From the IMG/VR virus record IMGVR_UViG_3300045391_005020: a stretch of 64,000 nucleotides of DNA; one strand, given 5' to 3'. Every line of letters starts with the position of its first letter. The stretch's first letter is position 1. The notes under the pieces were generated by a model. The model had not been told where the DNA came from. It was given only the letters and a program-made list of their open reading frames with translations, and made no database searches. Position numbers and translations under genes: made by a program. Below are positions 15,551-51,235 of the stretch, piece by piece. Origin of the DNA: a virus (lineage: Duplodnaviria; Caudoviricetes).

Positions 15551-15605
15551 GCCGACACTCCGGACCCCCAGAATGACAGATTATTACGCCGAGTCAAATC
15601 TATTG

Positions 15606-26256: not shown

Positions 26257-26300
26257 TAAAACAGAAGAGCCCGGGGAAATCCCCGGGCTCTTCTGTTTTA
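26257..26300. terminator. Bidirectional intrinsic terminator
   Basis: Perfect 20-bp inverted repeat taaaacagaagagcccgggg-aaat-ccccgggctcttctgtttta between convergent genes. Confidence 0.85.
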
Positions 26301-39092: not shown

Positions 39093-39479
39093 CAATTACC
39101 AATCCAACAACAAGTTAAACCAATCCAACCTGGTCGAAATTACCTACGCAGGGAGAGCGGTCAAACGTCGTCCTCTGTTATATTTCCGCTTGCTTCTGTG
39201 CTTTCCAGGGCATCCAGCGGATCCCTGTGGGGTTTGAGCGCCGGCACAAGGGGACTTTCCTCGGCGGCTGCGTAGATCGCCTCGATCCAGGCCATCGCCC
39301 CGAGACCGTGGTGGATCCTGACCAAAACCCGTATCTTGCACCCCAGGCAGGTGCCTGCTCCATGACAGATACACGTCTTCATACCAAGTCGATTGTGACG
39401 ATCCGGGAACGAAAGTCACGCGCCAGCTTGAGACCCCGTTTCCCGGCTGGGAAACCCAACTGTGGAACAATTCTTTAAG

Positions 39480-39550
39480 TGGCACAGCCCCCAGGTATTG
39501 CACCTGGCCCGCCGGATTTGGAGTTCGGCGCCTCCCTTGGAGAAGGCCAT
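39480..39550 (-). tRNA. tRNA-Trp(CCA), atypical reduced D-arm
   Basis: CTCCAAA loop, T-arm CCAGG/CCTGG and encoded CCA. Weak acceptor stem. Confidence 0.55.
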
Positions 39551-39556
39551 ATGGAA

Positions 39557-39631
39557 TGGTCCGCGCACAGGGAATTGAACCCCGATTCCCTCCTTATCAG
39601 AGAGGTGTCCTGACCGTTGGACGATACGCGA
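39557..39631 (-). tRNA. tRNA-Ile(GAT)
   Basis: CCTCT-CTGATAA-GGAGG anticodon arm, TTCAATT T-loop, CCA. Confidence 0.85.
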
Positions 39632-39638
39632 GTGAAGA

Positions 39639-39713
39639 TGGTGCTCAGCCAGGGAATTGCACCCCAGTCCCACCCATACCAAGGGCGTGTACTGCTGACT
39701 GTACTAGCAGAGC
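39639..39713 (-). tRNA. tRNA-Thr(GGT)
   Basis: CGCCC-TTGGTAT-GGGTG anticodon arm, CCA. Confidence 0.8.
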
Positions 39714-39781
39714 GTGAAACAGCGTCGTAAAGCAAGCGCGTTGCTTCGTGACAATAGACTTGACCAGGACACGATGCGTGC

Positions 39782-40081
39782 GTGATCGATGAAGAATTTG
39801 TAATCGTCGACGGCTCTGTCGAGTCGCCCCTGTTGACCGCTGAGGAGGCTGCGGCCTATCTGCGCTGTCACCCCAAGACGCTTGGTAAGCGTGGGGTGCC
39901 ATATGTCGACCTGGGGCATCGATCACACTTCTACCGGAAAGAGGACCTCGATGCTTGGATCGCGCAGCGGCTCAAGAAGCCGCTCGCATCCGCGCCGGCG
40001 CGCGTGGATGTCCTGGCGCTCGAGCCCGTGCGCGAGTACCTGCCGAAGCGCCGGAAGCGCGCTACGAGTCGAGCTTCCTGA
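39782..40081 (+). CDS. Excisionase-like HTH protein
   Basis: LLTAEEAAAYLRCHPKTL...YRKEDLDAWI, convergent with the integrase. Confidence 0.75.
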   Translation: MIDEEFVIVDGSVESPLLTAEEAAAYLRCHPKTLGKRGVPYVDLGHRSHFYRKEDLDAWIAQRLKKPLASAPARVDVLALEPVREYLPKRRKRATSRAS

Positions 40082-41396
40082 CCACTTCCCTGAACACCGT
40101 GCGCGACGGGTGCGCGTATCGCTCGGTGAGCTTCGTCGAGCTGTGTCCCATGAGTCCCTGGATGTGGTAGATGTCCACGTCCTTCTCGGTCAACCGGGTG
40201 GCGTACGTATGGCGCAGATCGTGGATCCTGAGCGTCGGTTTTCCGAGTTCCTCCCGGACTCGTTCCCACGCCTTGCGGAGCCCGACGGCCGGGCGTGGCC
40301 CGAACCGCTGTTCTTCCGCGGCGAGCCGCATCTTCACTGCTTCTTCGCGGGTCAAGAAAACCCCGAGGTACTTGGGGCGACCGCCGCGGCCACTCCCGAT
40401 CTCGGCGCGGTACCGGATGGCGCCGCCCTTCTGGCGCACCTTGCGGACGCCGAGGATTTGTCCGCCAGGAACCGATCGCTTCGGGAGCCGCGTGTTGCGC
40501 TCGCGATCGAGCCGAGACAGGGTGCCAGCGTGCCACGGAAAGATTGGCTCGGCGGCGCGGGCCTGGGCGACCTGCTTCAACTCCGCGACCGTGGCGACAC
40601 CGGCGCGACGCAGCAGCATGTCGATCGTTCGGTTCCGGAGCGGAACCTCGCGCATCTTATGGTTCTTGGTCACGTACCCCAGCAGACGCACGAACGGCTC
40701 GAGCTTCTCGGTGAACAGGATCGAGCTCCACGTGAGCGCCAAACCTTCACGCCGCCGCGCGCCCGTATCCATCAAGAGCATCGCGTAGTCGCGCAGGTCG
40801 GGCGTTGGCTCGCACAGCGCCAGCAACCGATCCGCTTCGGCCTCGCTCAGGGCCAGGTAGTTCGCAACCCCGACCGGCACCTTTTTGAATTCCGGAACCG
40901 GCATCCCGGCTCCCCAAAACTTGTTCGCGTACCGGCACACCACCGTGACGTTCATGAGCGTGGTGTTCACCGTGTTGGGGGCCAAGCCGGCCGCCAGCAT
41001 GGCGCGTTTGAAATCGCTCAGGCGCTCGGTGGTCACCGCGGTCAGCGGCGTCTTCTCGCCCAGGAACTCGACGATCCGGCCGAACAGAGACGCGCGGGTT
41101 GCCAAGGACTGCTTGTAGGGTCGATCGTGGTAGCAGGGGGCCACCACCTCGACCAGGTAGTCGTCGAACGCTTTCTTGACCGTCAGAGCCGAGCGCTCCG
41201 GCGGTGCCACGGTCACGGCCATGATCGGCACATGCTGGGCCTGGTCGCGCGCCGCCTTCCGGAGATTCACCTTCCACTCGTCCTCGAACTCGCGCGCGTC
41301 GTTCTTGGTCGGGAAGCCGCGCCGCGTGAAGCGTTGGTTCTTAAACTCGAACTGGACGTAGTAGGAATCGGTGCGTTTGTCGAAGCAGGCAGACAT
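40062..41396 (-). CDS. int: Tyrosine integrase with N-terminal arm-binding domain and an inserted AP2-like domain
   Basis: TGARRRE, HDLRHTYAT and LMGHSSTKLTERYAH catalytic motifs. Insertion GVRKVRQ..YRAEI..KYLGVFLTREEA. Confidence 0.92.
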   Translation of the reverse strand: MSACFDKRTDSYYVQFEFKNQRFTRRGFPTKNDAREFEDEWKVNLRKAARDQAQHVPIMAVTVAPPERSALTVKKAFDDYLVEVVAPCYHDRPYKQSLATRASLFGRIVEFLGEKTPLTAVTTERLSDFKRAMLAAGLAPNTVNTTLMNVTVVCRYANKFWGAGMPVPEFKKVPVGVANYLALSEAEADRLLALCEPTPDLRDYAMLLMDTGARRREGLALTWSSILFTEKLEPFVRLLGYVTKNHKMREVPLRNRTIDMLLRRAGVATVAELKQVAQARAAEPIFPWHAGTLSRLDRERNTRLPKRSVPGGQILGVRKVRQKGGAIRYRAEIGSGRGGRPKYLGVFLTREEAVKMRLAAEEQRFGPRPAVGLRKAWERVREELGKPTLRIHDLRHTYATRLTEKDVDIYHIQGLMGHSSTKLTERYAHPSRTVFREVVRKLDS

Positions 41397-41437
41397 GCTA
41401 TTTCTCCCATTGGTGTCACTACGGACTCACAGCACTT

Positions 41438-41765
41438 GGTCACCTGCAAGCCACCGTACCCCCTTTGGGTGCAATTCAAAATAGCGACTGATTGGTTTCG
41501 TTCGATGGTGTCATACACTCGGTATTTACCGATATTCTGTGCATTCCGTGCAGGCGATCCGATCATCGTAACAATAGATTTTAACCAGTGTTAAAACCCA
41601 TCTTTCGTAATTCAGATAGCCACGGTTCGATTAAATTCCCCAACCGCAGCCATTTGCACGACTTGTACCTAACAAAACCGTCTAGCTACTACTCCCGTTC
41701 GAAATCATAAAGGTAGTAAAAGGAGCGATGCGGACTCGCCGGTCACCTGCAAAGTCACCTGCAAA
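41438..41765. repeat. attP-like region with three direct GTCACCTGCAA repeats (putative arm sites)
   Basis: Copies near 41439, 41742 and 41754 in an AT-rich gap next to int. Confidence 0.6.
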
Positions 41766-41793
41766 CTACTGGGTTTATGGATGAAAAACGAAG

Positions 41794-41865
41794 TGCCCAA
41801 GAGAGGGATCGCACCTCCGACCTTTCGCTTACGAAGCGACTGCTCTACTGCTGAGCTACTCGGGC
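41794..41865 (-). tRNA. tRNA-Thr(CGT), no encoded CCA
   Basis: GTCGC-TTCGTAA-GCGAA anticodon arm in a canonical cloverleaf. Confidence 0.85.
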
Positions 41866-41912
41866 GCATGGGCCGCATCGTGCTCAAACGACGCCACGCG
41901 TCTAGGGGTGAC

Positions 41913-41987
41913 TGGTGCCCACGGCCACGAATCGCACGAGCGTCTCCTGAGTACAAAACAGGTGTCCTGCTACTGGACGACGCGGGC
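41913..41987 (-). tRNA. tRNA-Thr(TGT)
   Basis: CCTGT-TTTGTAC-TCAGG, CCA. Bulged T-stem. Confidence 0.7.
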
Positions 41988-41993
41988 ATTGAA

Positions 41994-42069
41994 TGGACTA
42001 CGCGATCGGTGCTGCCCCGACTTGGTCCTGCTTGGAAGGCAGGCGATCTGCTAGATGACCCACGCGTAG
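41994..42069 (-). tRNA. tRNA-Gly(TCC)
   Basis: CCTGC-CTTCCAA-GCAGG with U73. T-loop GGCAGCA. Confidence 0.8.
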
Positions 42070-42076
42070 GTGAAAG

Positions 42077-42334
42077 TTAGATTGGTTCGCCGTGCAGCTG
42101 AATCAGCGCATGGCATCGATGGGTGAGTTCGAAGCACGCCATCGCGGTCTGGTTGGCGACCTCATGGGGAACGTAGAGACGACCCCGTTCGGGATCGAAG
42201 TGCGCGCCGCGCAGCCACGGCATCTCGGTTAGGATCGGAACACCGATCGCCATCAGCTCGTCGTAGGTGAGCCAGTACCGGTACGGCCAGCTCAGAGTGG
42301 CGGGTGCTTCAGGTGTCTCTTGGCCGTCGGGCAT
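42077..42334 (-). CDS. Hypothetical protein
   Basis: 85 aa ORF in a tRNA spacer. Confidence 0.45.
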   Translation of the reverse strand: MPDGQETPEAPATLSWPYRYWLTYDELMAIGVPILTEMPWLRGAHFDPERGRLYVPHEVANQTAMACFELTHRCHALIQLHGEPI

Positions 42335-42531
42335 GAGATCTGGAATCCGATCGGAGCCGGACGGTTCAGGATGTCGTCGTGGCGGGCTTCGTCTTCTTCG
42401 CGGGCGCAGCGAGCGGCCCGGATCTCGTTGATCAGGAACATGATGGCGGCTCCTACCAGGAAACCGGCCGCGAATCCGACGGAGAGTATGATTGGCACAC
42501 CCGGATCATAACGAGTCAAGTCTATTGTCAA

Positions 42532-42606
42532 TGGTGCTGGCCCAGGGAATTGAACCCCGGTCTGAGCGGTACGAAGGCCCTGTTCTGCTAACTAAACTAG
42601 GCCAGC
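42532..42606 (-). tRNA. tRNA-Thr(CGT), second copy
   Basis: GCTGGCC/GGCCAGC acceptor stem, TTCGTAC loop, CCA. Confidence 0.7.
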
Positions 42607-42660
42607 ATGGCGAGACAATAGATTTGACTGACAGTGTAATATTACATACAGTCGGCCGGT

Positions 42661-43431
42661 ATGCGTACCGCCCTCCTGCTGTTACTATTCGGAACTCTGT
42701 CGGCCGCGGTCCCGGGAATCCCTGAGCCGCCGGCGCCGGGCCCGATCCCGGAAGTGACGCTCGGGTGGTTCAACGACTGGCACGCGATCCCGACCACGCA
42801 CTCGGATGATCACCGGACCAACGCGTTCATCGTGGGGATCCGGATCGACGACTGGGTCTACCAAGTCGACGACTCGATGCTCACGTCGCGCGAGCTCGGG
42901 GTCAGGAACGACGAACTCTCGCTGACCGCAGGCTACATCATCGCGAACGACGAGTCGGCCTCGATCGTCCTCGGCGGCGGGGTTCGGCTCCGCGGAGACT
43001 ATGGCGGCGAGTCCACCCAGAACTGGTGGCATTCGCAGTGGCGCGATTACCCGGTCCACCTTGCGTACGAAGACTCGGTTCCGAGCCCGATTCTCTACAT
43101 GATGAATCACCTGCGGACGTTTCCGCTCAACGATCATTCGCTCGAGATCATCGCGGACGGTGAAGTCCTGTCGGACGCGCTCGCCGTCGATCTCGGGCTG
43201 CGCGACGTCGTGTTCCTGAATGACGCCGGTGACATCCGTATCTGGTTCGGCCCGCGCTGGCAGTTCCGCGAAGATTGGCAGGACAATCAGATCGGTCCCG
43301 AGATCGCTCGATTCGAACGAGGTCTCTGGATCGACTACGGGATCCAGATCGGTCACTTCAGCCTCGGAGAACGCCATGCGATCGGGCGCTCCGAAGGCAT
43401 GGGCACGATCAGCTGGAGCTGTGGATTCTAA
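42661..43431 (+). CDS. Outer-membrane beta-barrel, lipid A deacylase LpxR-like
   Basis: Signal peptide, ND...DD.RTNA motif, QNWWH, amphipathic strands and terminal Phe. TTGACT-17-TACAGT promoter upstream. Confidence 0.55.
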   Translation: MRTALLLLLFGTLSAAVPGIPEPPAPGPIPEVTLGWFNDWHAIPTTHSDDHRTNAFIVGIRIDDWVYQVDDSMLTSRELGVRNDELSLTAGYIIANDESASIVLGGGVRLRGDYGGESTQNWWHSQWRDYPVHLAYEDSVPSPILYMMNHLRTFPLNDHSLEIIADGEVLSDALAVDLGLRDVVFLNDAGDIRIWFGPRWQFREDWQDNQIGPEIARFERGLWIDYGIQIGHFSLGERHAIGRSEGMGTISWSCGF

Positions 43432-43601
43432 TGACCAAAGTACCTCTTTCGCCCTGGACGCGCCTCACGAGTCGCTCCGAACTGGAGTCTGACGCGCGCT
43501 ACTTCAAGCTGCTCGACGAAAACGGCCGGAAGCATCTGACCGCAGAAACAAAGAAGCGCATCGACGCACTCCGGATGATGTACGGCGACGACGCCTGATG
43601 A

Positions 43602-43679
43602 TGGTCGGCGCCGTGGGAGTCGAACCCACCTGTGACCGCTTATAAGACGGCTTGCGACTGAACCGGTCGCGTGACGCCA
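43602..43679 (-). tRNA. tRNA-Ile(TAT)
   Basis: GCCGT-CTTATAA-GCGGT anticodon arm, TTCGACT T-loop, CCA. Confidence 0.75.
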
Positions 43680-43682
43680 CTG

Positions 43683-44468
43683 TTATGGTTCAGGGGCCCA
43701 GGTGACCGAGCTGAACTCGATGTGCCTGGTAGAGTCTGGATTCCAGACGTCGAACACTTTGACGCCGGTTCCTTCGTCCATCGGGATATAGGCGTCCGCG
43801 GCGCTCACGTTGGTGAGCGGGCTTGGCGGGTTCGACTGATACGTTACCGCATAGAAGTTTCGCATGTAACCGTTGATTCCCGGGTTGTCGTAGCCGACGC
43901 GCATCCCGAGGAGACCAGCGCCCGTCGTGATGTTCGCCCCGACTGTTCCAGAGACCACTGAGACTCCGTTGAGAAACACAGCCGTTACGCGAGACGTGTT
44001 GACGGTGATCCTGATTGTGTTCCACGCACCGAAGTTGAATAGACCGGGAGCTGAGCTGTTCTGGAAGGCTCCGCCCGCCCATTGTGCTTGCCAGCGCAAC
44101 GATCCGTCACCCATCACCCGTAACTCATACCCGTAATTTGAGACGTTCCACGGTGCCCCGAAAGAGAACAAGCCAGCGGATCCAGAGGCGTGATTGACTT
44201 CGAACTCCCACGTGCGGGCCTGGAGACCGCCGGCCGCGATGTGCCACATCGTGTTTCCGCGCCCGTAGAACGCCTGGTTGGTGCTGCCGAGGCTCTGGAG
44301 GTTGGTGTCGAACGGCCGATCGTAAATCGTTTCCGGCATGCGCCCGCCCTGGACGGCTTCAACATGCGAGAGAGCCTCGGTCTTCCGGAACCTGTCTTGC
44401 TCGATCTGGTTCTGCTGGCCAGCTGGAGTTCGACTCTTACCGTTGTCGGTTACGCGGAATTTAGGCAT
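43683..44468 (-). CDS. Concanavalin A/LamG-like lectin domain protein
   Basis: Beta-sandwich pattern WNTIRITV..VFLNG..INGYMRNF and YIPMDEGTG..VFD. Confidence 0.6.
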   Translation of the reverse strand: MPKFRVTDNGKSRTPAGQQNQIEQDRFRKTEALSHVEAVQGGRMPETIYDRPFDTNLQSLGSTNQAFYGRGNTMWHIAAGGLQARTWEFEVNHASGSAGLFSFGAPWNVSNYGYELRVMGDGSLRWQAQWAGGAFQNSSAPGLFNFGAWNTIRITVNTSRVTAVFLNGVSVVSGTVGANITTGAGLLGMRVGYDNPGINGYMRNFYAVTYQSNPPSPLTNVSAADAYIPMDEGTGVKVFDVWNPDSTRHIEFSSVTWAPEP

Positions 44469-44506
44469 ACCACAGAGTTTATGGTTGCCATGTCGGCATA
44501 CTAGGG

Positions 44507-44582
44507 TGGCGTCGCGGGGTGGGCTCGAACCACCAGCCTCCAGCTTCGGAGGCTGGTGCTCGTCCGATCGAGCTGCCGCGAC
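44507..44582 (-). tRNA. tRNA-Arg(CCG)
   Basis: CCAGC-CTCCGAA-GCTGG, CCA. Confidence 0.85.
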
Positions 44583-44586
44583 AAAA

Positions 44587-44661
44587 TGGAACGCATGCTG
44601 GGAATCGCACCCAGATCCTCTCGCTGGCAGCGAGACGTCTTAGCTGTTAGACGACACACGC
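44587..44661 (-). tRNA. tRNA-Gly(GCC)
   Basis: TCTCG-CTGCCAG-CGAGA, U73, CCA. Confidence 0.8.
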
Positions 44662-44667
44662 GTGAAA

Positions 44668-45096
44668 CTAAAGAAGCGGAAGCTGTCCCGTCACGGGATC
44701 GATCTCGTGGTCCCAGTGTGGACCGATCGCCAGACACGTCTTGGTCGGAACCCCGTTGAACTCGGTGAGGCCGCGGTCTTCGATCAGATGACACCGTAGC
44801 CCACGAGCCTTCGCGGCCAGCTCGATGTCGAGCAAGGCCTGCTCGGACTCAACGTAGCAGCAGATCTTCCGGAAGTTGCCGAAGTACCAGGCTTGCTCGG
44901 CCGGATCCAGGAAGATCCCGTCGAGCTCGATTTTGACGTCGTTGTCCTTCAGGCCTGGACGGCTCTCGCGCGGCCCGAACACTTTGAGCATCAGGGCTGC
45001 GATGCTGGCATGAGATCCCTGAGCGATCATCTTACCCTTGCGCATATTGAGGTCCTTGCGGACCACGATCACTTGCTTAACCGAGTTGACTGACAT
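44668..45096 (-). CDS. pth2: Peptidyl-tRNA hydrolase, Pth2 family
   Basis: KQVIVVRKDLNMRKGKMIAQGSHA and DRGLTE..TCLAIGP. Confidence 0.92.
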   Translation of the reverse strand: MSVNSVKQVIVVRKDLNMRKGKMIAQGSHASIAALMLKVFGPRESRPGLKDNDVKIELDGIFLDPAEQAWYFGNFRKICCYVESEQALLDIELAAKARGLRCHLIEDRGLTEFNGVPTKTCLAIGPHWDHEIDPVTGQLPLL

Positions 45097-45135
45097 GGCA
45101 GCACTGTACAGAGTCCTTGTTGGGTTGGAAGGAAA

Positions 45136-45212
45136 TGGTCCGCCGCGTAGGACGTGCGCCTACATCCCCCGGTTAAGAGCCGGGTGCATCTGTCTGTTTA
45201 TGCTTGCAGCGA
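45136..45212 (-). tRNA. tRNA-Lys(CTT)
   Basis: CCCGG-CTCTTAA-CCGGG, CCA. Atypical T-loop CGCACGT. Confidence 0.8.
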
Positions 45213-45218
45213 ATGAAG

Positions 45219-45293
45219 TGGTTGACCACCACGGGGTCGATCCGTGTTCCCTCGGTTAAAAGCCGAGTGCATCAGCCCTAATGCTTGTGATCT
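45219..45293 (-). tRNA. tRNA-Lys(TTT)
   Basis: CTCGG-CTTTTAA-CCGAG, CCA. Confidence 0.8.
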
Positions 45294-45299
45294 GTGAAA

Positions 45300-45373
45300 T
45301 GGAGGCGCGAGGAGGAATCAAACCTCCGTGGACAGGGTTGCAATCTGCCGCCTGGTCACTCGGCCATCGCGTC
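45300..45373 (-). tRNA. tRNA-Cys(GCA)
   Basis: TTGCAAC loop, U73, CCA. Confidence 0.85.
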
Positions 45374-45470
45374 TTGAAAAGTAAAGGGTGCCCGTTCTTC
45401 CTATTGGTAGAAGAACGGGACTTGTTGGTGTCACGCGTGATGACACCACGGGTACGGTCGTCCGGCCCAG

Positions 45471-45758
45471 TCAGGCGACTTCTGGAGTTCGCTGCTCCGG
45501 GAGACCGAGGAACGCATTGCGCATGTTCTCGATGCGCGACTCTGGCGACCGGTGCGCCGTCGGCTTACCGCGGATCACAAGCGAGAGGTCGTGAAGGGTG
45601 CTGATCAGGAGCGCGTTGTAGTGCGCCTGAGACTGCGCGACGCGAGCTGCGTTGCTCACGTGTGGCTCGTGCGTGACCGCCTTGAAGGCGACCTGCATGG
45701 CAACGAGCTTCTTGAGCTCGCACCGTATTTTGTAGACGTCGTCGGAGATCTGGGACAT
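45471..45758 (-). CDS. Hypothetical helical protein downstream of the Pth2-like gene
   Basis: 95 aa with RBS aaagg, directly following the Pth2-like gene. Confidence 0.55.
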   Translation of the reverse strand: MSQISDDVYKIRCELKKLVAMQVAFKAVTHEPHVSNAARVAQSQAHYNALLISTLHDLSLVIRGKPTAHRSPESRIENMRNAFLGLPEQRTPEVA

Positions 45759-45761
45759 TGG

Positions 45762-46097
45762 TTACCTTTCAGGATTCCAGAGTTTGTGGTGACGAAACAG
45801 TTTCCTGGCCTCGCCCGAGATGGGCGCGGTCGCGAGCGCGGTAGCGGCGTTGCCGATATCGGGCTCTCGGAAGAGAGTGAGAGGAATGCCGGCCCCGGTG
45901 AGCCGCTCAGCTTCCTGGAGAAGCTCGAGCTCAGACGGGACACCGATCACGATCAGGTGGCTGATCTGGTCGGTCTGGTACGGGTGGAGGAGTGCGACCT
46001 CGTGGGTCGCGTGGGCAGCCTGAACAAGCTGCTGGGCCAATGGCAGGTCTAGCCTGACAAGGCAGTAGACGTAGCCGGGTAGCTAGGCGTTCTTCAT
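45762..46097 (-). CDS. Pth2-like protein interrupted by in-frame TAG at codon 5 (readthrough candidate)
   Basis: ATG AAG AAC GCC TAG CTA CCC GGC TAC GTC TAC... reads MKNA*LPGYVYCLVRLDLPLAQQLVQAAHA...FREPDIGNAATALAT. Confidence 0.75.
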
Positions 46098-46138
46098 GGT
46101 AACGATTTCACCAAGCTGACCAGGGCGGTCAAGGCTAT

Positions 46139-46372
46139 TCAATCTTCGTAATCCAGCTTCTGGAGCTCGTCCAGATCGCGGTCACTCAGGTGCTCTTCGG
46201 GCGAGGGCGTGTTCAGCAAGGTGACGCCGTTGATCGCGGTCACGTGCTTCATGTAGCGCTTCAGGAGCTCTTTGTAGTCGGGCTCAGCCTGCTGGACCAT
46301 AACGGCAAGCCGGTTATTCGACTTACCGATCTGGCGCAGGTTGGCTTTGAAGGTATCGGACGCTTTAGTCAT
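46139..46372 (-). CDS. Hypothetical protein (77 aa)
   Basis: Strong RBS aggag, between the suppressor tRNA and the Pth2-like gene. Confidence 0.55.
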   Translation of the reverse strand: MTKASDTFKANLRQIGKSNNRLAVMVQQAEPDYKELLKRYMKHVTAINGVTLLNTPSPEEHLSDRDLDELQKLDYED

Positions 46373-46384
46373 GGCTGGCTCCTA

Positions 46385-46460
46385 TGGTGCCCCCGGTGGG
46401 ATTCTCGCCCACAACCGCCGGGTTTAGAATCCGCCGCTCTTGATATTGAGCTACGGGGGC
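46385..46460 (-). tRNA. Amber suppressor tRNA (anticodon CTA)
   Basis: 76 nt: GCCCCCG TA GCTC AATATCAA GAGC G GCGGA TTCTAAA CCCGG CGGTT GTGGG CGAGAAT CCCAC CGGGGGC A CCA, with CTA at positions 34-36. Confidence 0.8.
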
Positions 46461-46467
46461 ATGGGGG

Positions 46468-46496
46468 ACTATGGCACAATATAACGCCACAGTCAA
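46468..46496 (-). promoter_or_regulatory. Sigma70-like promoter for the suppressor tRNA
   Basis: TTGACT-17 bp-CATAGT with TG extension. Confidence 0.6.
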
Positions 46497-46517
46497 GGCC
46501 ATTGTCACGAATCGGAC

Positions 46518-47411
46518 CTACTCCTGGCCCTCGCGCTTGTATTCATTCATCTTACTGATCTTCAGGTTGACCTCTTCGACTGCCTGCTTCTTCTGCTTGG
46601 TCTTGGCACCTTTACGGGCGCTGGCAGAGCGTTCGTCGATCATGCGGTCTCTGGTGTTGCCGAGCAGGTCCTCGGTGGCGCTGAACAGACGCTTAACCGA
46701 TTTGTCTTCGCGCCACTGCTCTATCGCCCAGGTGCAGTTCCAGTAGTTGTCGCTGGAGCCCGAACCGATGCGATCACCCAGCACCGCGTTGCGGAGGACC
46801 AAGATCGGACTGCCTTCAGGCAGATCCGTGCCGGCCAGGTATGAGTCGATGAACTCCTCGGCCTTCCGAGGATAGAAGTGATGGAAAACCACCATTGCCG
46901 CCGCGATGGTCGCGCGGGTTAAACGAGCACGTTTCGTGTTGAATTTCCCGGTCACGAACTCGAACGACGCAGACATCTTGAGGAAAGTGTCCTCGAGTTC
47001 GTCGATCGTCGGGCGGTGGTGGACGCCGGTGCACTTCAGATACTGGCTAACGATCTGATTGCAGAGACGGTTATGGGCCGGGTCATTCAGAAGTTTGAGG
47101 CACTCGAAGCTGGTACGATTGCGACCGCGGTCCGTATGCTTAGCGATTTCAGGACTACCGCCGCGCATGACGTACATCCACTGCCCTTTGCCAGTAATGA
47201 CGATCGCGGCGAGTCGGTGTTGGCCGTCGAGTACTTCACCGTCTTTACCGATGCAGATACCCTGATGGGTCGTCATGAACTCATCGTTCATAATAAGCCG
47301 GACGAAGTAATCGGTATTGGCCGGCGTCATCGGGCGCGCGTTGTTGTGGTTGTGGTTTTTTAGCAAGTCCTCGGCTATTTCCTTGGACACGTATTCTCGG
47401 TTGTACGACAT
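46518..47411 (-). CDS. ParB/Srx-like (DGQHR) domain protein
   Basis: N-terminal NARP..THQGI..LDGQHRLAAI. Confidence 0.7.
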   Translation of the reverse strand: MSYNREYVSKEIAEDLLKNHNHNNARPMTPANTDYFVRLIMNDEFMTTHQGICIGKDGEVLDGQHRLAAIVITGKGQWMYVMRGGSPEIAKHTDRGRNRTSFECLKLLNDPAHNRLCNQIVSQYLKCTGVHHRPTIDELEDTFLKMSASFEFVTGKFNTKRARLTRATIAAAMVVFHHFYPRKAEEFIDSYLAGTDLPEGSPILVLRNAVLGDRIGSGSSDNYWNCTWAIEQWREDKSVKRLFSATEDLLGNTRDRMIDERSASARKGAKTKQKKQAVEEVNLKISKMNEYKREGQE

Positions 47412-47525
47412 AGGATCTTTCCCGCCCGCTGTGGGCCATTTCGTAGACAGTGTAAATTCGCGTTACCGAGGCCAAATATACGAGCTGTTGCACACAGTCA
47501 AGATCATTGTATTGATCGTACTAAA

Positions 47526-47603
47526 TGGTCGGGATGGCGGGATTTGAACCCACGATCTCCTGGTCCCAAGCCAGGCGGAGTAACCAGACTCTCCTACACC
47601 CCT
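47526..47603 (-). tRNA. tRNA-Pro(TGG)
   Basis: CCTGG-CTTGGGA-CCAGG, CCA. Confidence 0.85.
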
Positions 47604-47610
47604 ATGAAAA

Positions 47611-47687
47611 TGGTCAGAGTGGTTGGATTTGAACCAACGATCTCCTGGATCCGAACCAGGCAGAATACCAAGCTTTCCCACACTCTG
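47611..47687 (-). tRNA. tRNA-Pro(CGG)
   Basis: CCTGG-TTCGGAT-CCAGG, CCA. Confidence 0.85.
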
Positions 47688-47692
47688 AAAAA

Positions 47693-47767
47693 TGGCGCCC
47701 CCACGCGGTGCTGCCCCGCGCTCTCCTGATAGACAATCAGGCGTCTTAGCTGATGGACGATGAGAGC
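47693..47767 (-). tRNA. tRNA-Asp(GTC)
   Basis: CCTGA-TTGTCTA-TCAGG, G73. T-loop GGCAGCA. Confidence 0.75.
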
Positions 47768-47771
47768 AAAA

Positions 47772-47866
47772 GCCCGCGCTTTATTCGACCGCCTTCGCGG
47801 CCACCCGTTCAACCGACGGGCAGGTCAGCCTTACGGCTGCGCGGAACCTGATTGCCTTGCGGCACG
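47772..47866 (-). ncRNA. Structured, pseudoknot-capable RNA in a tRNA spacer
   Basis: Four hairpins (two with GNRA loops) plus crossing pairings CAGGTT/GACCTG and CCGCGC/GCGCGG. Confidence 0.5.
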
Positions 47867-47868
47867 AA

Positions 47869-47943
47869 TGGTGGATCCGAGGTGACTCGCACACCTATCC
47901 CTCTGCTTGCAAAGCAGCCGCTCTTCTTTGGAGCTACGAACCC
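47869..47943 (-). tRNA. tRNA-Ala(TGC)
   Basis: TTTGCAA loop, G3:U70, A73, CCA. Confidence 0.85.
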
Positions 47944-48005
47944 GAAAAACATGCAGATAACGCGCTGGTTCCCGCGGCCTATTGATTTGCTATTCCGCCC
48001 GGACG

Positions 48006-48110
48006 GGAGCGGTTGCTGGCTCGAGCACAGCGGCGGCGTGTTACCAATTACACTAACCGGAGCAACCCGGCCGGGCGTCGAACCCGATTTCCGCAAGAGG
48101 TGACCGCTCC
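48006..48110 (-). ncRNA. Circularly permuted tRNA-like RNA (Y RNA/YrlA-like)
   Basis: Terminal stem GGAGCGGT/ACCGCTCC encloses, in order, a T-arm (GGGTTCGACGCCC), a loop-closed acceptor-like stem and a D-arm (GTGT AATTGGTA ACAC). Confidence 0.55.
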
Positions 48111-48234
48111 ATGCCTGGTACGGGTTGAGCGCGATCTCGAGCAGCGCTGCAGCGTGGCTCGATGTTTCGCTCGGTCATTCTCGTCCTAAGGGGACGGGTG
48201 GCCCGTAGAGGATTTGATCCTCAGCGATCATGAA

Positions 48235-48311
48235 TGGAGGGAGAAGGCGGAATCGAACCGTCTTGCGAGCGCGCCCGCATCGAGCCCAGGTATCCCTGTT
48301 CGAATTCTCCC
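48235..48311 (-). ncRNA. tRNA-like RNA with acceptor stem, T-arm and CCA but no canonical D/anticodon arms
   Basis: GGGAGAA/TTCTCCC acceptor, GGTTCGATTCC T-arm and two non-standard hairpins. Confidence 0.55.
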
Positions 48312-48316
48312 ATGAA

Positions 48317-48405
48317 TGGCGGGGTGAGATGGGTTCTATACCACCGACCTCTCATTGGCCGACATTGCTGTCGGCGAATAAGTGCTCTCGCTGAGCTACC
48401 ACCCC
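48317..48405 (-). ncRNA. tRNA-like RNA whose anticodon loop is replaced by an extended GNRA-capped helix
   Basis: Normal acceptor, D and T arms and CCA. Anticodon arm reads CTTATT-C-GCCGACA-GCAA-TGTCGGC-C-AATGAG. Confidence 0.65.
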
Positions 48406-48470
48406 AAAGAGGATCCGTCGGTCACGAACACTGATGAGGTGCTCGATTCGGTCATCAGCCGACCGACGGC

Positions 48471-48813
48471 GTTAAGTTGTTTGAAGCGAGCTCGAGTGAG
48501 GGGTTACAATTCCCTGACTTATCTCCGCAATCACGTATTCGACCATCCTGCCTCATCCGTGCCCGAACGGCCGTTCGGGACACCGGGTCAACAGCAGGAG
48601 GAGGACTCTCACCTCCACACGCTCGCCTTCTAGTCGTTATATTTGGCTACCAAGCGTGGCTCTCGAGTTGCGCACCGATGAACACCCAATGCGTCTCGAT
48701 CGTCGTCTTGCGCTTTCGCGTTCTTTCGTACCTCTTTATGTTCTCAAGAGTGCCTTGGTCCCCGAAGGACGGGTTGGCTCGGCCACACGCGGGCGCGCTT
48801 CAATCAACTTAAC
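48471..48813 (-). ncRNA. ~340-nt structured ncRNA closed by a long terminal helix
   Basis: GTTAAGTTG-A-TTGAAGCG pairs with CGCTTCAA-A-CAACTTAAC. Internal hairpins include the T-arm-like GGAGGTGAGAGTCCTCC. No credible ORF. Confidence 0.55.
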
Positions 48814-48820
48814 AAACTGG

Positions 48821-48832
48821 ATTTCAAAGATC
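48821..48832 (-). promoter_or_regulatory. boxA-like antitermination element
   Basis: GATCTTTGAAAT directly upstream of the ncRNA helix, resembling rRNA leader boxA. Confidence 0.5.
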
Positions 48833-48884
48833 GAAGCACAGATAATCCGGTCCCGGCCATGATAGTCAAGGCCATTGTTATGAT

Positions 48885-48961
48885 TGGTTGCGAGTCTTGG
48901 AATTGCACCAAGCTACTTGGCTTATGAGACCAGGCAGGATCTATCTCCTGTCGAACTCGCA
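48885..48961 (-). tRNA. tRNA with CAT anticodon (Met or Ile2)
   Basis: CTGGT-CTCATAA-GCCAA, TGCGAGT/ACTCGCA acceptor, CCA. Confidence 0.75.
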
Positions 48962-48966
48962 TTGAA

Positions 48967-49042
48967 TGGTACGCGACGATGGATTCGAACCACCGGTCTT
49001 CTCGATGTCACCGAGTTGCTCTGGCCGCTGAGCTAGTCGCGT
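48967..49042 (-). tRNA. tRNA-Val(GAC)
   Basis: GTGACAT loop, canonical arms, CCA. Confidence 0.85.
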
Positions 49043-49047
49043 ATGAA

Positions 49048-49122
49048 TGGTGGTCAGCCAGGGACTCGAACCCTGATTCTCCGGGTGTAGGCCGGGCGTT
49101 CTTGCCGTTGAACTAGCCGACG
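49048..49122 (-). tRNA. tRNA-Val(TAC)
   Basis: CCTACAC loop (C33), TTCGAGT T-loop, CCA. Confidence 0.75.
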
Positions 49123-49127
49123 ATGAA

Positions 49128-49201
49128 TGGCACCCACTGATGGAATTGAACCACCGCCTGAACGTTCGTAGCGTCCCGGTCTTCCGTTAGCCTAAGCGGG
49201 C
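49128..49201 (-). tRNA. tRNA-Arg(ACG)
   Basis: GGACG-CTACGAA-CGTTC, CCA. Confidence 0.85.
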
Positions 49202-49224
49202 GTGTCCCTACCTGCGCAGGGAAA

Positions 49225-49299
49225 TGGTACTCGGTCAGGGTTCTGCCCCCTGTTCTCGCGGATGAAAGCCGCGGATCTTAGCTAGTGGACGAACCGAGC
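49225..49299 (-). tRNA. tRNA-Glu(TTC)
   Basis: CGCGG-CTTTCAT-CCGCG, CCA. Confidence 0.8.
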
Positions 49300-49304
49300 A
49301 TGAA

Positions 49305-49380
49305 TGGGCCAAGAGACCGGATTCGCACCGGCATCACGGGAGACACAATCCCGCATCCTCACTGTTGGACGACTCTAGGC
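49305..49380 (-). tRNA. tRNA-His(GTG)
   Basis: CGGGA-TTGTGTC-TCCCG, G-1:C73, CCA. Confidence 0.8.
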
Positions 49381-49385
49381 ATGAA

Positions 49386-49460
49386 TGGGTGACCCGCGAG
49401 GATTCGAACCTCGAGCAGCGAGATCCAAAGTCTCGCGTTCTACCATTGAACTACAGGTCA
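49386..49460 (-). tRNA. tRNA-Gln(TTG)
   Basis: CGAGA-CTTTGGA-TCTCG, U1-A72, CCA. Confidence 0.85.
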
Positions 49461-49470
49461 GTGAAAAAGG

Positions 49471-49611
49471 TCAGGCGCTCTTCCGGGTTAAGCTAGCAAG
49501 ACAAGGGCCTGGGCGCATGGCGTCGATCGCCGCTTCCGCGCTGTTCCGCGAGTGTCGTCGAGGCCTCGACGACTGCTCTTCTTGGACGGGATTCGAACCC
49601 GCATCTCCTGA
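49471..49611 (-). ncRNA. Second circularly permuted tRNA-like element with a large insert in the acceptor arm
   Basis: TCAGG AGAT GCGGG TTCGAAT CCCGT CCAAGA ...insert... TCTTGC TA GCTT AACCCGGAA GAGC G CCTGA. Confidence 0.5.
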
Positions 49612-49614
49612 GAG

Positions 49615-49689
49615 TGGTAGTCCTACTGTGTGCTGCCCACAGTTTGTCCGGCTGAGAACCGGGTGTACTAGCTGGTGTACGATAGGACC
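49615..49689 (-). tRNA. tRNA-Glu(CTC)
   Basis: CCCGG-TTCTCAG-CCGGA, T-loop GGCAGCA, CCA. Confidence 0.75.
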
Positions 49690-49784
49690 AAGAAAAAGGA
49701 GTCGGCCAGGTCAGCTGGCATTGATATCTGCGTAGGTCGGAATACCCGGCGCACCGGGGCGACATCGCATACGACTCCGAAGAT

Positions 49785-49860
49785 TGGCGGCGCCGACAGG
49801 ACTCGAACCTGTCGCCTTCCCGTTAGGACCGGGACGCTCTACCGGATGAGCTACGGCGCT
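49785..49860 (-). tRNA. tRNA-Arg(CCT)
   Basis: TCCCG-GTCCTAA-CGGGA, CCA. Confidence 0.85.
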
Positions 49861-49900
49861 CTGACCGCGCGCACGAAATGTGGCTCGCGCGCACGGAATG

Positions 49901-49974
49901 TGGCTGGACCGGAGGGATTCGAACCCTCACGCCCGCGTTTAGAAGGCGCGGCTCTGATCCGATCAGGCGGTCCC
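49901..49974 (-). tRNA. tRNA-Arg(TCT), atypical short D-loop
   Basis: CGCGC-CTTCTAA-ACGCG, canonical T-arm, D-stem CTGAT/ATCAG with a 3-nt loop. Confidence 0.55.
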
Positions 49975-49986
49975 GAAACTTGACAC

Positions 49987-50268
49987 ATGAGCCAGAATTC
50001 GTCTGCTCTGACCCGAAAGGATTTACTCATGCCCATGAGTCGAGCAGGACGGGCCGCGGTCGCGGCAGCAGCCAAGAAGCGTTGGAGGCTGATCAAGGCT
50101 GGAAAGATCCGGAAGCCGAAGGTCGGCCGCAAGGCCGGCGGACGCAACAGTGCAAAATTATCGATCAAGTCGTCCGGTCAGTCCGGGCTCAAAGAAACCG
50201 TGAAGGCGTTGAAACAGCTCGGGGCCGCGGCGGGATGCCGGGTCGAAGTGACGCTCGTCCCGAAGTAG
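49987..50268 (+). CDS. Small Lys/Arg-rich nucleic-acid-binding protein
   Basis: MSRAGRAAVAAAAKKRW motif, highly basic. Confidence 0.5.
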   Translation: MSQNSSALTRKDLLMPMSRAGRAAVAAAAKKRWRLIKAGKIRKPKVGRKAGGRNSAKLSIKSSGQSGLKETVKALKQLGAAAGCRVEVTLVPK

Positions 50269-50580
50269 TTACTTGGTCCAGTGAGGGGTGTTAAGCATCA
50301 TCGCATGCGCCTCGGTCTGGATATCGCTGAACTCGCGCTCACTCATTCCGGACTTGATGGCCTCGATCTGGAGTCTCGCCAACAGAGCGGCTGCGAGGCC
50401 TAGGCAGGTCTTGAGTGGACCGCGATGGAAGGTTCCGAATAGGGCCTCGTTGGTCCCGGTCGTCTCGTCTTGTTTGACCATCGAGATCACGCACGCGATT
50501 CCGCGGCTCTGGAGCTCCGAGATCAATTCGCGATCGGGTACGAGTTTCAGATTCATGACGGTTTTGTAGCCAGACCGCAA
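50269..50580 (-). CDS. Hypothetical protein, paralog of 23824-24219
   Basis: LISELQSRGIACVISMVKQDETTGT. Confidence 0.6.
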   Translation of the reverse strand: MRSGYKTVMNLKLVPDRELISELQSRGIACVISMVKQDETTGTNEALFGTFHRGPLKTCLGLAAALLARLQIEAIKSGMSEREFSDIQTEAHAMMLNTPHWTK

Positions 50581-50597
50581 TGCGATCCAGCCAGAAA

Positions 50598-50671
50598 TGG
50601 CAGCCAGGCAGGGAATCGAACCCCGATATCGTGGTTAACAGCCACGTGTAATACCGTTATACGACCCGACT
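50598..50671 (-). tRNA. tRNA-Asn(GTT)
   Basis: CGTGG-CTGTTAA-CCACG, G73, CCA. Confidence 0.85.
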
Positions 50672-50733
50672 AAATGTCGGCCGTCCTCGACCTCTGCCGA
50701 GGACGGCCCACAAGAATTGTTCCACAGTATAGA

Positions 50734-50748
50734 GTTTTCAAAGACAGC
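50734..50748 (-). promoter_or_regulatory. boxA-like antitermination element at the head of the tRNA operon
   Basis: GCTGTCTTTGAAAAC. Confidence 0.6.
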
Positions 50749-50759
50749 CTGAAACGCAT

Positions 50760-50786
50760 GAACCCCAGGCTTTTGGCCTGGGGTTC
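50760..50786 (-). terminator. Attenuator terminator hairpin
   Basis: GAACCCCAGGC-CAAAA-GCCTGGGGTTC perfect 11-bp stem with a weak U tail. Confidence 0.6.
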
Positions 50787-50813: not shown

Positions 50814-50948
50814 TTACTCTCGGACCCCCAGGATATCGCCATTACCGCGTTCAGTACCGACACAAATTCCCGTAGTCACGGCTTGCGGTTTGGCATGCCA
50901 TGTGGGCTTGGTCATCGCGGCTGGATTTCTGAGGGCTATAGAAAGCAT
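50814..50948 (-). CDS. Putative 44-aa attenuator leader peptide
   Basis: MLSIALRNPAAMTKPTWHAKPQAVTTGICVGTERGNGDILGVRE*. Its 3' end overlaps the antiterminator strand. Confidence 0.55.
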   Translation of the reverse strand: MLSIALRNPAAMTKPTWHAKPQAVTTGICVGTERGNGDILGVRE

Positions 50949-50977
50949 GATGTCCTGGCGTCCCAAGATAACGCCCA

Positions 50978-51235
50978 TCACTTGGAAGTCAAGCTAACGG
51001 GCGAGTTCTTCCAGACGCCGCGGATACTGGTGGCGATCCAGACAACCTGCAGTGCCACAATCGCCCACGCGCTGGTCTCCCAGCCATAGATGGCCAAGAA
51101 AATGTCGCTGACGATGAACCACACGAAGCCCCACATGCGGGTGCGGGAGACCTGGCTGGCGACCAACAGGGCGCCGAGCAAACCGGCCGCGGCAGCCGGC
51201 CACTGGCACAAGAGCGCGATGTCGTGCCAGGTCAC
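50978..51235 (-). CDS. Small three-helix membrane protein
   Basis: Hydrophobic segments and GFVWFIVSD motif. Confidence 0.55.
   Translation of the reverse strand: MTWHDIALLCQWPAAAAGLLGALLVASQVSRTRMWGFVWFIVSDIFLAIYGWETSAWAIVALQVVWIATSIRGVWKNSPVSLTSK

Follow-up and report, generated by a model that had tools for sequence, protein, structure and literature searches.

Precursors of ribosomal RNA (rRNA) are closed by leader-trailer helices that lie next to boxA and are cut by RNase III. In phage lambda, boxA forms part of the boxA-boxB nut sites, at which the phage recruits host Nus factors, and the transfer RNA (tRNA) cluster of phage T4 gives rise to a phage-encoded multi-tRNA precursor that is cut by host RNases. 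To our knowledge neither a boxA leader nor an end-to-end helix has been described for T4, and our literature searches found no published description of a boxA or helix framing of tRNA arrays in any phage. In the E. coli rRNA (rrn) leader a boxB hairpin is followed by boxA and then by boxC, which lies inside the 5' strand of the leader-trailer helix; the antitermination complex comprises NusA, NusB, NusE, NusG, and SuhB as well as S4, and according to the model for this system NusB-bound boxA tethers the leader at the RNA exit channel until the trailer comes out (PMC10250234). Here we describe two complementary 17-nt sequences that bracket the tRNA block of a tailed phage, IMG/VR record IMGVR_UViG_3300045391_005020. 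The record is a 148,649-bp virus contig with 60% G+C and an estimated completeness of 74%, from which we analyzed a stretch of 64,000 nt (the window, to which coordinates refer). The interpretation that we favor, with confidence that is about evenly balanced, is that the two 17-mers pair in the RNA as a long-range helix, which would frame the tRNA block as leader-trailer helices frame pre-rRNA.

The sequence ACTGTGGAACAATTCTT occupies positions 39459-39475 and its exact reverse complement positions 50712-50728, which places the copies 11.2 kb apart and in the inverted orientation that pairing within one strand requires. Because all of the tRNA genes lie on the minus strand, the copy at 50712-50728 is the 5' (leader) arm, ACUGUGGAACAAUUCUU, and the copy at 39459-39475 is the 3' (trailer) arm, AAGAAUUGUUCCACAGU. 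All of the tRNA genes detected in the 148.6-kb record fall between these arms, both of which are non-coding and lie less than 100 nt from their end of the array. A preliminary description of the window had reported the two exact complements, their bracketing of the entire tRNA region, and the location of the leader copy just after boxA and before tRNA-Asn, and each of these statements held on re-examination. A search of the whole record for dispersed copies, allowing up to two mismatches, returned only the two arms, and no further copy was present in the window at up to three mismatches (0.05 expected). An 83-codon plus-strand open reading frame (ORF) that ends inside the trailer arm was discarded, having no coding signature. 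A promoter common to both 17-mers was likewise rejected; the element TTGAAA-17-AATTCT, read from the sequence, overlaps the leader copy alone.

The leader arm is embedded in an ordered set of elements on the minus strand. A promoter-like site, P1 (TTGACT-16-TATCTT, 50965-50992), lies approximately 220 nt upstream of boxA, and a stable hairpin with an 11-bp stem (GAACCCCAGGC/GCCTGGGGTTC, 50760-50786) occupies the boxB position 13 nt upstream of it. The boxA-like motif itself, TGTCTTTGAAAACT, is found at 50733-50746; its core, CTTTGAAAACT, occurs once in the record and also agrees with boxA as found in many Gram-positive rrn operons. Four nucleotides separate this motif from the start of the leader arm. 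It is separated by a G+C-rich hairpin with an 11-bp stem (50679-50708) from tRNA-Asn, the first tRNA on the transcript, which begins at 50671. The predicted leader fold consists of the two hairpins (z = -5.8), and the unpaired linker that joins them holds boxA and most of the arm; a weak 5-bp hairpin takes up five bases of the arm. The record has a third boxA-like match (genome position 89692), which by eye seems to be in coding sequence. Upstream of boxA, a 44-codon ORF that might be taken for a leader peptide (50814-50948, minus strand) has a third-position G+C content (GC3) of 0.51 and no coding signature, the well-supported genes that we checked having values of 0.73-0.85.

At the opposite end of the block, the trailer arm lies 4 nt (CTTA) after an encoded CCA at 39482-39480. 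The preliminary description had assigned this CCA to the last tRNA, tRNA-Trp. The 4-nt distance is correct, but the tRNA-Trp(CCA)-like element (39480-39550, minus strand) scores below threshold, with 15.3 bits in Rfam against a cut-off of 29, and is called by ARAGORN at a relaxed setting only. The element is probably a real but atypical tRNA, because its anticodon loop reads CUCCAAA, its CCA is encoded, and its unusual TGC T loop is common to six confident tRNAs of the array. In these six (Thr-GGT, Thr-CGT, Gly, Ala, His, and an Rfam-only tRNA at 41916), TGC replaces TTC in the T loop, giving G at position 55. A small hairpin, GTTTCCC-AGCC-GGGAAAC (39438-39455, minus strand), lies directly 3' of the trailer arm. 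On the same strand a strong intrinsic terminator, with 11 pairs and a T-rich tail, appears only beyond the arm, at 39091-39064, approximately 370 nt past it. This terminator is likely to be the end of the minus-strand unit, which would then stop just beyond the frame.

The layout of the locus matches that of the rrn leader-trailer helix in the order of its parts, with a promoter, a hairpin, boxA, and the 5' strand of the helix, and with the partner strand after the last RNA gene. As in rrn, the local fold leaves boxA and the arm unpaired, and the start of the phage arm, ACUGUGG, bears a weak resemblance to boxC (UCUGUGUGGG), a part of the 5' strand in the E. coli helix. The differences are also considerable. 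The phage helix would enclose tRNAs and protein genes rather than rRNA, over a span of 11.2 kb as compared to approximately 1.6-3 kb, and a role in ribosome assembly is inconceivable for it. Its arm lies 4 nt after boxA, whereas 18-19 nt separate boxA from boxC in Enterobacteriaceae, and a tRNA, and hence an RNase P site, follows 40 nt after the 5' arm. The presence of boxA in a phage recalls the lambda nut sites. However, the hairpin here precedes boxA as it does in rrn, rather than following it, and what is targeted is a block of tRNAs closed by a helix; we identified no N-like protein, although no search was aimed at one.

The phage boxA shares twelve contiguous bases (TCTTTGAAAACT) with a boxA in the 16S-23S spacer of an Acidobacteriaceae rrn operon (locus L169), where the motif is located between the tRNAs and the 23S gene. 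In both sequences ATACT follows two bases later. Beyond ATACT the two are not alike. We rejected the idea that the arm mimics host rRNA: the boxA core matches the Acidobacteriaceae spacer boxA, but searches of five test genomes did not find the arm, nor did a search of 301 Acidobacteriota genomes find a pattern including its start. A LamG protein, which we used for host inference, has viral neighbors only.

Is the pairing more than a coincidence of length? The length of 17 nt is not exceptional by itself, because the genome contains four distant perfect inverted repeats of at least 17 nt; one of them is a member of a promoter motif family, and two others match within G+C-rich coding sequence. 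What distinguishes the pair is its placement. We compared the 300 nt before the first tRNA with the 300 nt after the last confident tRNA and recorded the best complement, which is 17 nt at this locus and 7-10 nt in 23 array loci of other phages (20 after removal of three duplicate loci, some of the remainder still being close relatives). The best complement did not exceed 13 nt in 552 mismatched leader/trailer pairs, nor in 200 dinucleotide shuffles of the 11.5 kb downstream. The placement of the 17-mer pair is thus far beyond chance. A purely fortuitous match draws some encouragement from the other long inverted repeats, at least two of which are plainly fortuitous within coding sequence, but the background for this arm geometry never surpasses 13 nt, and both arms are non-coding and close to the array ends. 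Alternatively, the tRNA block could travel on a mobile element whose terminal inverted repeats are the 17-mers. A target-site duplication, which would mark transposon ends, is missing from the flanks of the arms (GGAAACCCA and TATAGAGTT), the 17-mer has no other copies, and no transposase was found among the ORFs scanned in the block. Given the geometry and these three negative results, the chance and transposon readings, both very unlikely, are effectively excluded.

Another possibility is that the pair is a functionless leftover: an earlier inverted duplication or inversion, of which it would be the junction or seed, could have carried part of the leader to the opposite end of the array. tRNA arrays are often rearranged, and the sequences around the arms share a weak colinear resemblance (GTGG within the core; CGTTTC, GGCTG, and AAAC(T/C)C beyond it), such as a decayed inverted duplication of approximately 50 nt would leave. 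This resemblance does not reach significance, though, and a leftover leaves the exact placement of the copies next to boxA and the last CCA unexplained. Moreover, if the flanks have decayed to background, we infer that 17 unbroken matches would need constraint (0.7^17, or approximately 0.002). We consider a functionless relic unlikely.

The part of the predicted helix that withstands controls is its core. The 17-bp duplex has a calculated energy of -24.8 kcal/mol, and GTGG and CCAC may add four pairs across a 3-nt bulge to give 21 bp in total. When the leader is cofolded with the trailer, the 17-bp helix forms and both leader hairpins and the tRNA-like fold are kept. A more extended helix was considered and rejected: the global duplex of -126 kcal/mol failed its controls, the energy of the flanks being equal to the mean of dinucleotide shuffles and their local alignment giving p ~0.19.

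A second and smaller frame of the same design lies inside the block. On the minus strand an internal promoter-like site, P2 (TTGACT-16-GATTAT, 48869-48842), precedes a second boxA-like motif, TCTTTGAAAT (48830-48821), which is followed after 21 nt by a 5' arm at 48787-48799. Its 3' partner, at 48268-48280, is approximately 510 nt downstream, and the two form 13 bp, one of them a G-U pair. In the minimum-energy fold this helix closes the stretch of approximately 510 nt, and its 11-nt perfect core has p = 0.01 against dinucleotide shuffles. The second frame matters because its sequence is different from that of the 17-mers and its layout is the same, which an RNA function predicts and a shared DNA site does not. 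It provides modest evidence for the RNA helix. The enclosed stretch (48280-48787, minus strand) has no convincing ORF, a fold z of -2.3, and no Rfam match, and may be an unknown structured RNA. It holds a tRNA-like acceptor/D-arm start (GGGGUGGUAGCUCAG) and a CCA end.

The second frame also bears on the proposal that the 17-mers act as DNA, in the form of two identical protein sites. A regulator might bind them to loop or insulate the tRNA block, or they might allow a recombinase to invert the 11.2-kb segment relative to the outside promoter and boxA. Invertible segments, as in the Hin, Gin, and Fim systems, do have inverted sites, and the perfect inverted repeat in exactly two copies would suit such a role. 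Recombination genes are also present within the bracket, namely a tyrosine integrase (Phage_integrase; 40062-41396, minus strand) and an excisionase-like HTH_17 gene (xis; 39782-40081, plus strand). The integrase, however, already has a conventional attP-like site next to it (41439-41764, plus strand), in which three exact direct arm-type repeats of GTCACCTGCAA surround a stretch of 45% G+C. This site lies inside the bracket, shares nothing with the 17-mer arms, and serves the sole recombinase that we found in the block, so that no recombinase recognizing the 17-mers is apparent there. In addition, the 17-mer is not palindromic as recombinase core sites are, and a DNA site accounts neither for the 4-nt spacings to boxA and to the last CCA nor for the separate complementary pair, of different sequence, that accompanies the second boxA-like motif. 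On this evidence we regard a DNA-level function of the 17-mers as improbable.

For the long-range RNA helix, we envisage the following course of events. Host RNA polymerase would start at the sigma-70-like promoter (~50992) and transcribe the stable hairpin, boxA, and the 5' arm. Host NusB/NusE and their partners would load on boxA and render the polymerase resistant to termination across long untranslated RNA, while the boxA-bound factors would hold the leader near the RNA exit channel. The 3' arm would then emerge 4 nt after the last CCA and pair with the leader arm held there. The resulting helix could tell a nuclease specific for double strands, such as host RNase III, where the tRNA block ends, protect the ends, or do both. 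What we observe is the two sequences with their uniqueness and placement, the predicted local folds, and the second frame; that the polymerase crosses the entire block, that Nus factors load, and that the arms pair in vivo and are cut, we infer. The promoter-like sites of the locus are of the -35/-10 type, as would suit host polymerase working with host Nus factors. The scheme would require enzymes of the host, because no RNase III or NusB gene was found in the phage record.

Several observations weigh against this scheme. At 17 bp the helix is shorter than the 25-40 bp of rrn helices, complementarity beyond the core is not significant by either shuffle energy or alignment, and the core is perfect and so carries no G-U signal. 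Between the arms, 11.2 kb apart, there are minus-strand promoter-like sites at 48869, 46496, and ~42529, a terminator-like hairpin between convergent units (43572-43553, minus strand), two plus-strand genes that each have their own promoter motif (an ORF at 42661-43431 and xis), and the attP-like site. With these internal promoters, the terminator-like site, the opposite-strand genes, and the attP-like site, a single 11-kb precursor is not assured. The suggestion in the preliminary description that the block is handled as an rRNA-style precursor is upheld in part: the arms bracket the tRNAs, exist in two copies only, and include a 5' arm that follows boxA in an unpaired linker, but the block is not a simple operon. 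The same description conjectured that the helix marks ancestral limits of the operon, into which int/xis, an LpxR-like gene, and others would have been inserted later. RNase P cleavage at tRNA-Asn, 40 nt after the arm, would moreover sever the leader long before the trailer is made, so that pairing would need a tethered or a free leader fragment. Taken together, the mosaic block and the RNase P site imply that pairing in vivo would depend either on full read-through with a tethered leader or on the pairing of separate molecules. The comparative data are also adverse. A leader-trailer complement was seen in none of 23 phage array loci sampled for linkage to the peptidyl-tRNA hydrolase PTH2, and three distant relatives of this phage lack the layout; distant relatives identified by RNA polymerase (44% identity) or by the ATPase (41%) have small tRNA clusters without it.

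Pairing of separate molecules can also be framed as an explanation of its own. A leader fragment released by RNase P would act in trans, like a small RNA, on a separate downstream transcript, for example one starting from the promoter motif near 42529, and no 11-kb precursor would be needed. Such a mechanism fits the internal promoter-like and terminator-like sites, which split the block into at least two minus-strand units; the energy of the core duplex is ample for intermolecular pairing, and the arm is largely unpaired in the leader fold. A purely trans mechanism nevertheless gives boxA adjacency no obvious role, and the 510-nt second frame looks intramolecular. We judge action in trans to be decidedly improbable.

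Tethering of the leader suggests a bolder version of the long-range helix, which we put forward tentatively and consider doubtful. The boxA-bound leader might ride with the polymerase for 11 kb, even after RNase P has freed it from the first tRNA, and anneal to the trailer as it emerges. The helix would then be the stop mark of an antiterminated tRNA factory, triggering an RNase III cut and freeing the polymerase of the Nus complex, which would let the terminator act 370 nt beyond. As the attP-like site lies inside the bracket, integration there would split it, and the frame might accordingly be intact only while the genome is in its replicating form and be separated in the prophage.

If the pairing is true, phages have borrowed the design of rRNA transcription and processing, with boxA antitermination and an end-to-end helix, for large sets of tRNAs. 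Long untranslated tRNA arrays would then have a possible means of escape from Rho-dependent termination, and the locus would offer a natural test of the anchored-leader model of rrn, at a distance several times that of any rRNA and despite an RNase P site immediately after the leader. The combination of boxA and a closing helix would further help to delimit operons of phage tRNAs or non-coding RNAs in metagenomes.

Searches for related arrangements returned little. The exact 17-mer had three matches in IMG/VR, all in unrelated low-GC coding sequence. Patterns combining boxA with the arm had no match in IMG/VR and 22 in JGI metagenomes, the latter all unrelated and with no tRNA or Rfam family nearby, and a comparison of the block and leader with GenBank phages found nothing similar. 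In other phage arrays, two candidate repeats of 16-17 nt were dismissed, one being a coding segment and the other AT-rich promoter text. The upstream 374-aa protein has one known relative (47% identity), encoded on a 213,586-bp Logan/ENA contig that also encodes a PTH2 76% identical to that of the phage; no other close relative came out of the protein searches. PTH2 as an anchor revealed no close relative among IMG/VR or GTDB genome contigs, the loci so identified being at most 57% identical; those from IMG/VR, when compared directly, lack the leader. The phage PTH2 is a full peptidyl-tRNA hydrolase gene within the tRNA block (44668-45096, minus strand), and a second ORF on the same strand (45762-46040) has a weak PTH2 match (E = 0.007).

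The tRNA block extends from 39557 to 50671 on the minus strand, with tRNAs interspersed among protein genes. ARAGORN predicts 20 tRNAs in the whole record, all between the arms. Two further minus-strand tRNAs are recognized by Rfam alone, at 46388-46460 (50.4 bits) and 41916-41987 (41.9 bits); the first sits directly behind a TTGACT-17-CATAGT promoter-like site. The integrase matches Phage_integrase in two stretches, and its residues ~300-372 match HNH-endonuclease PHROGs, which suggests that an HNH-like domain is inserted within the catalytic region. The attP-like site stands in the middle of the tRNA block of a phage of more than 148 kb that encodes its own RNA polymerase. The plus-strand ORF at 42661-43431, a gene of unknown function with an exact copy of the phage promoter motif upstream (42614-42629), is taken to be a real gene and not the shadow of its minus strand because its GC3 is 0.81. 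An LpxR-like identity for this ORF has no support in Pfam or PHROGs.

The promoter motif, GACAATAGAYTTGACT, is a 16-nt sequence composed of a conserved upstream element and a -35 hexamer. Of its 17 occurrences in the record most are upstream of genes, on the coding strand, and the motif probably defines a promoter class of the phage. Copies in the window include those at 15592, 25509, 42514, 42614, 46491, and 56372. Inside the bracket the motif is found on the minus strand at 46506-46491 and 42529-42514 and on the plus strand at 42614-42629 and at 39750-39765, the latter being the copy that belongs to xis. Inverted copies flank the tRNA-Thr gene at 42532-42606. Outside the bracket, a perfect 21-bp palindrome with a 2-nt loop (26257-26300) lies between convergent genes and is likely to be a bidirectional terminator.

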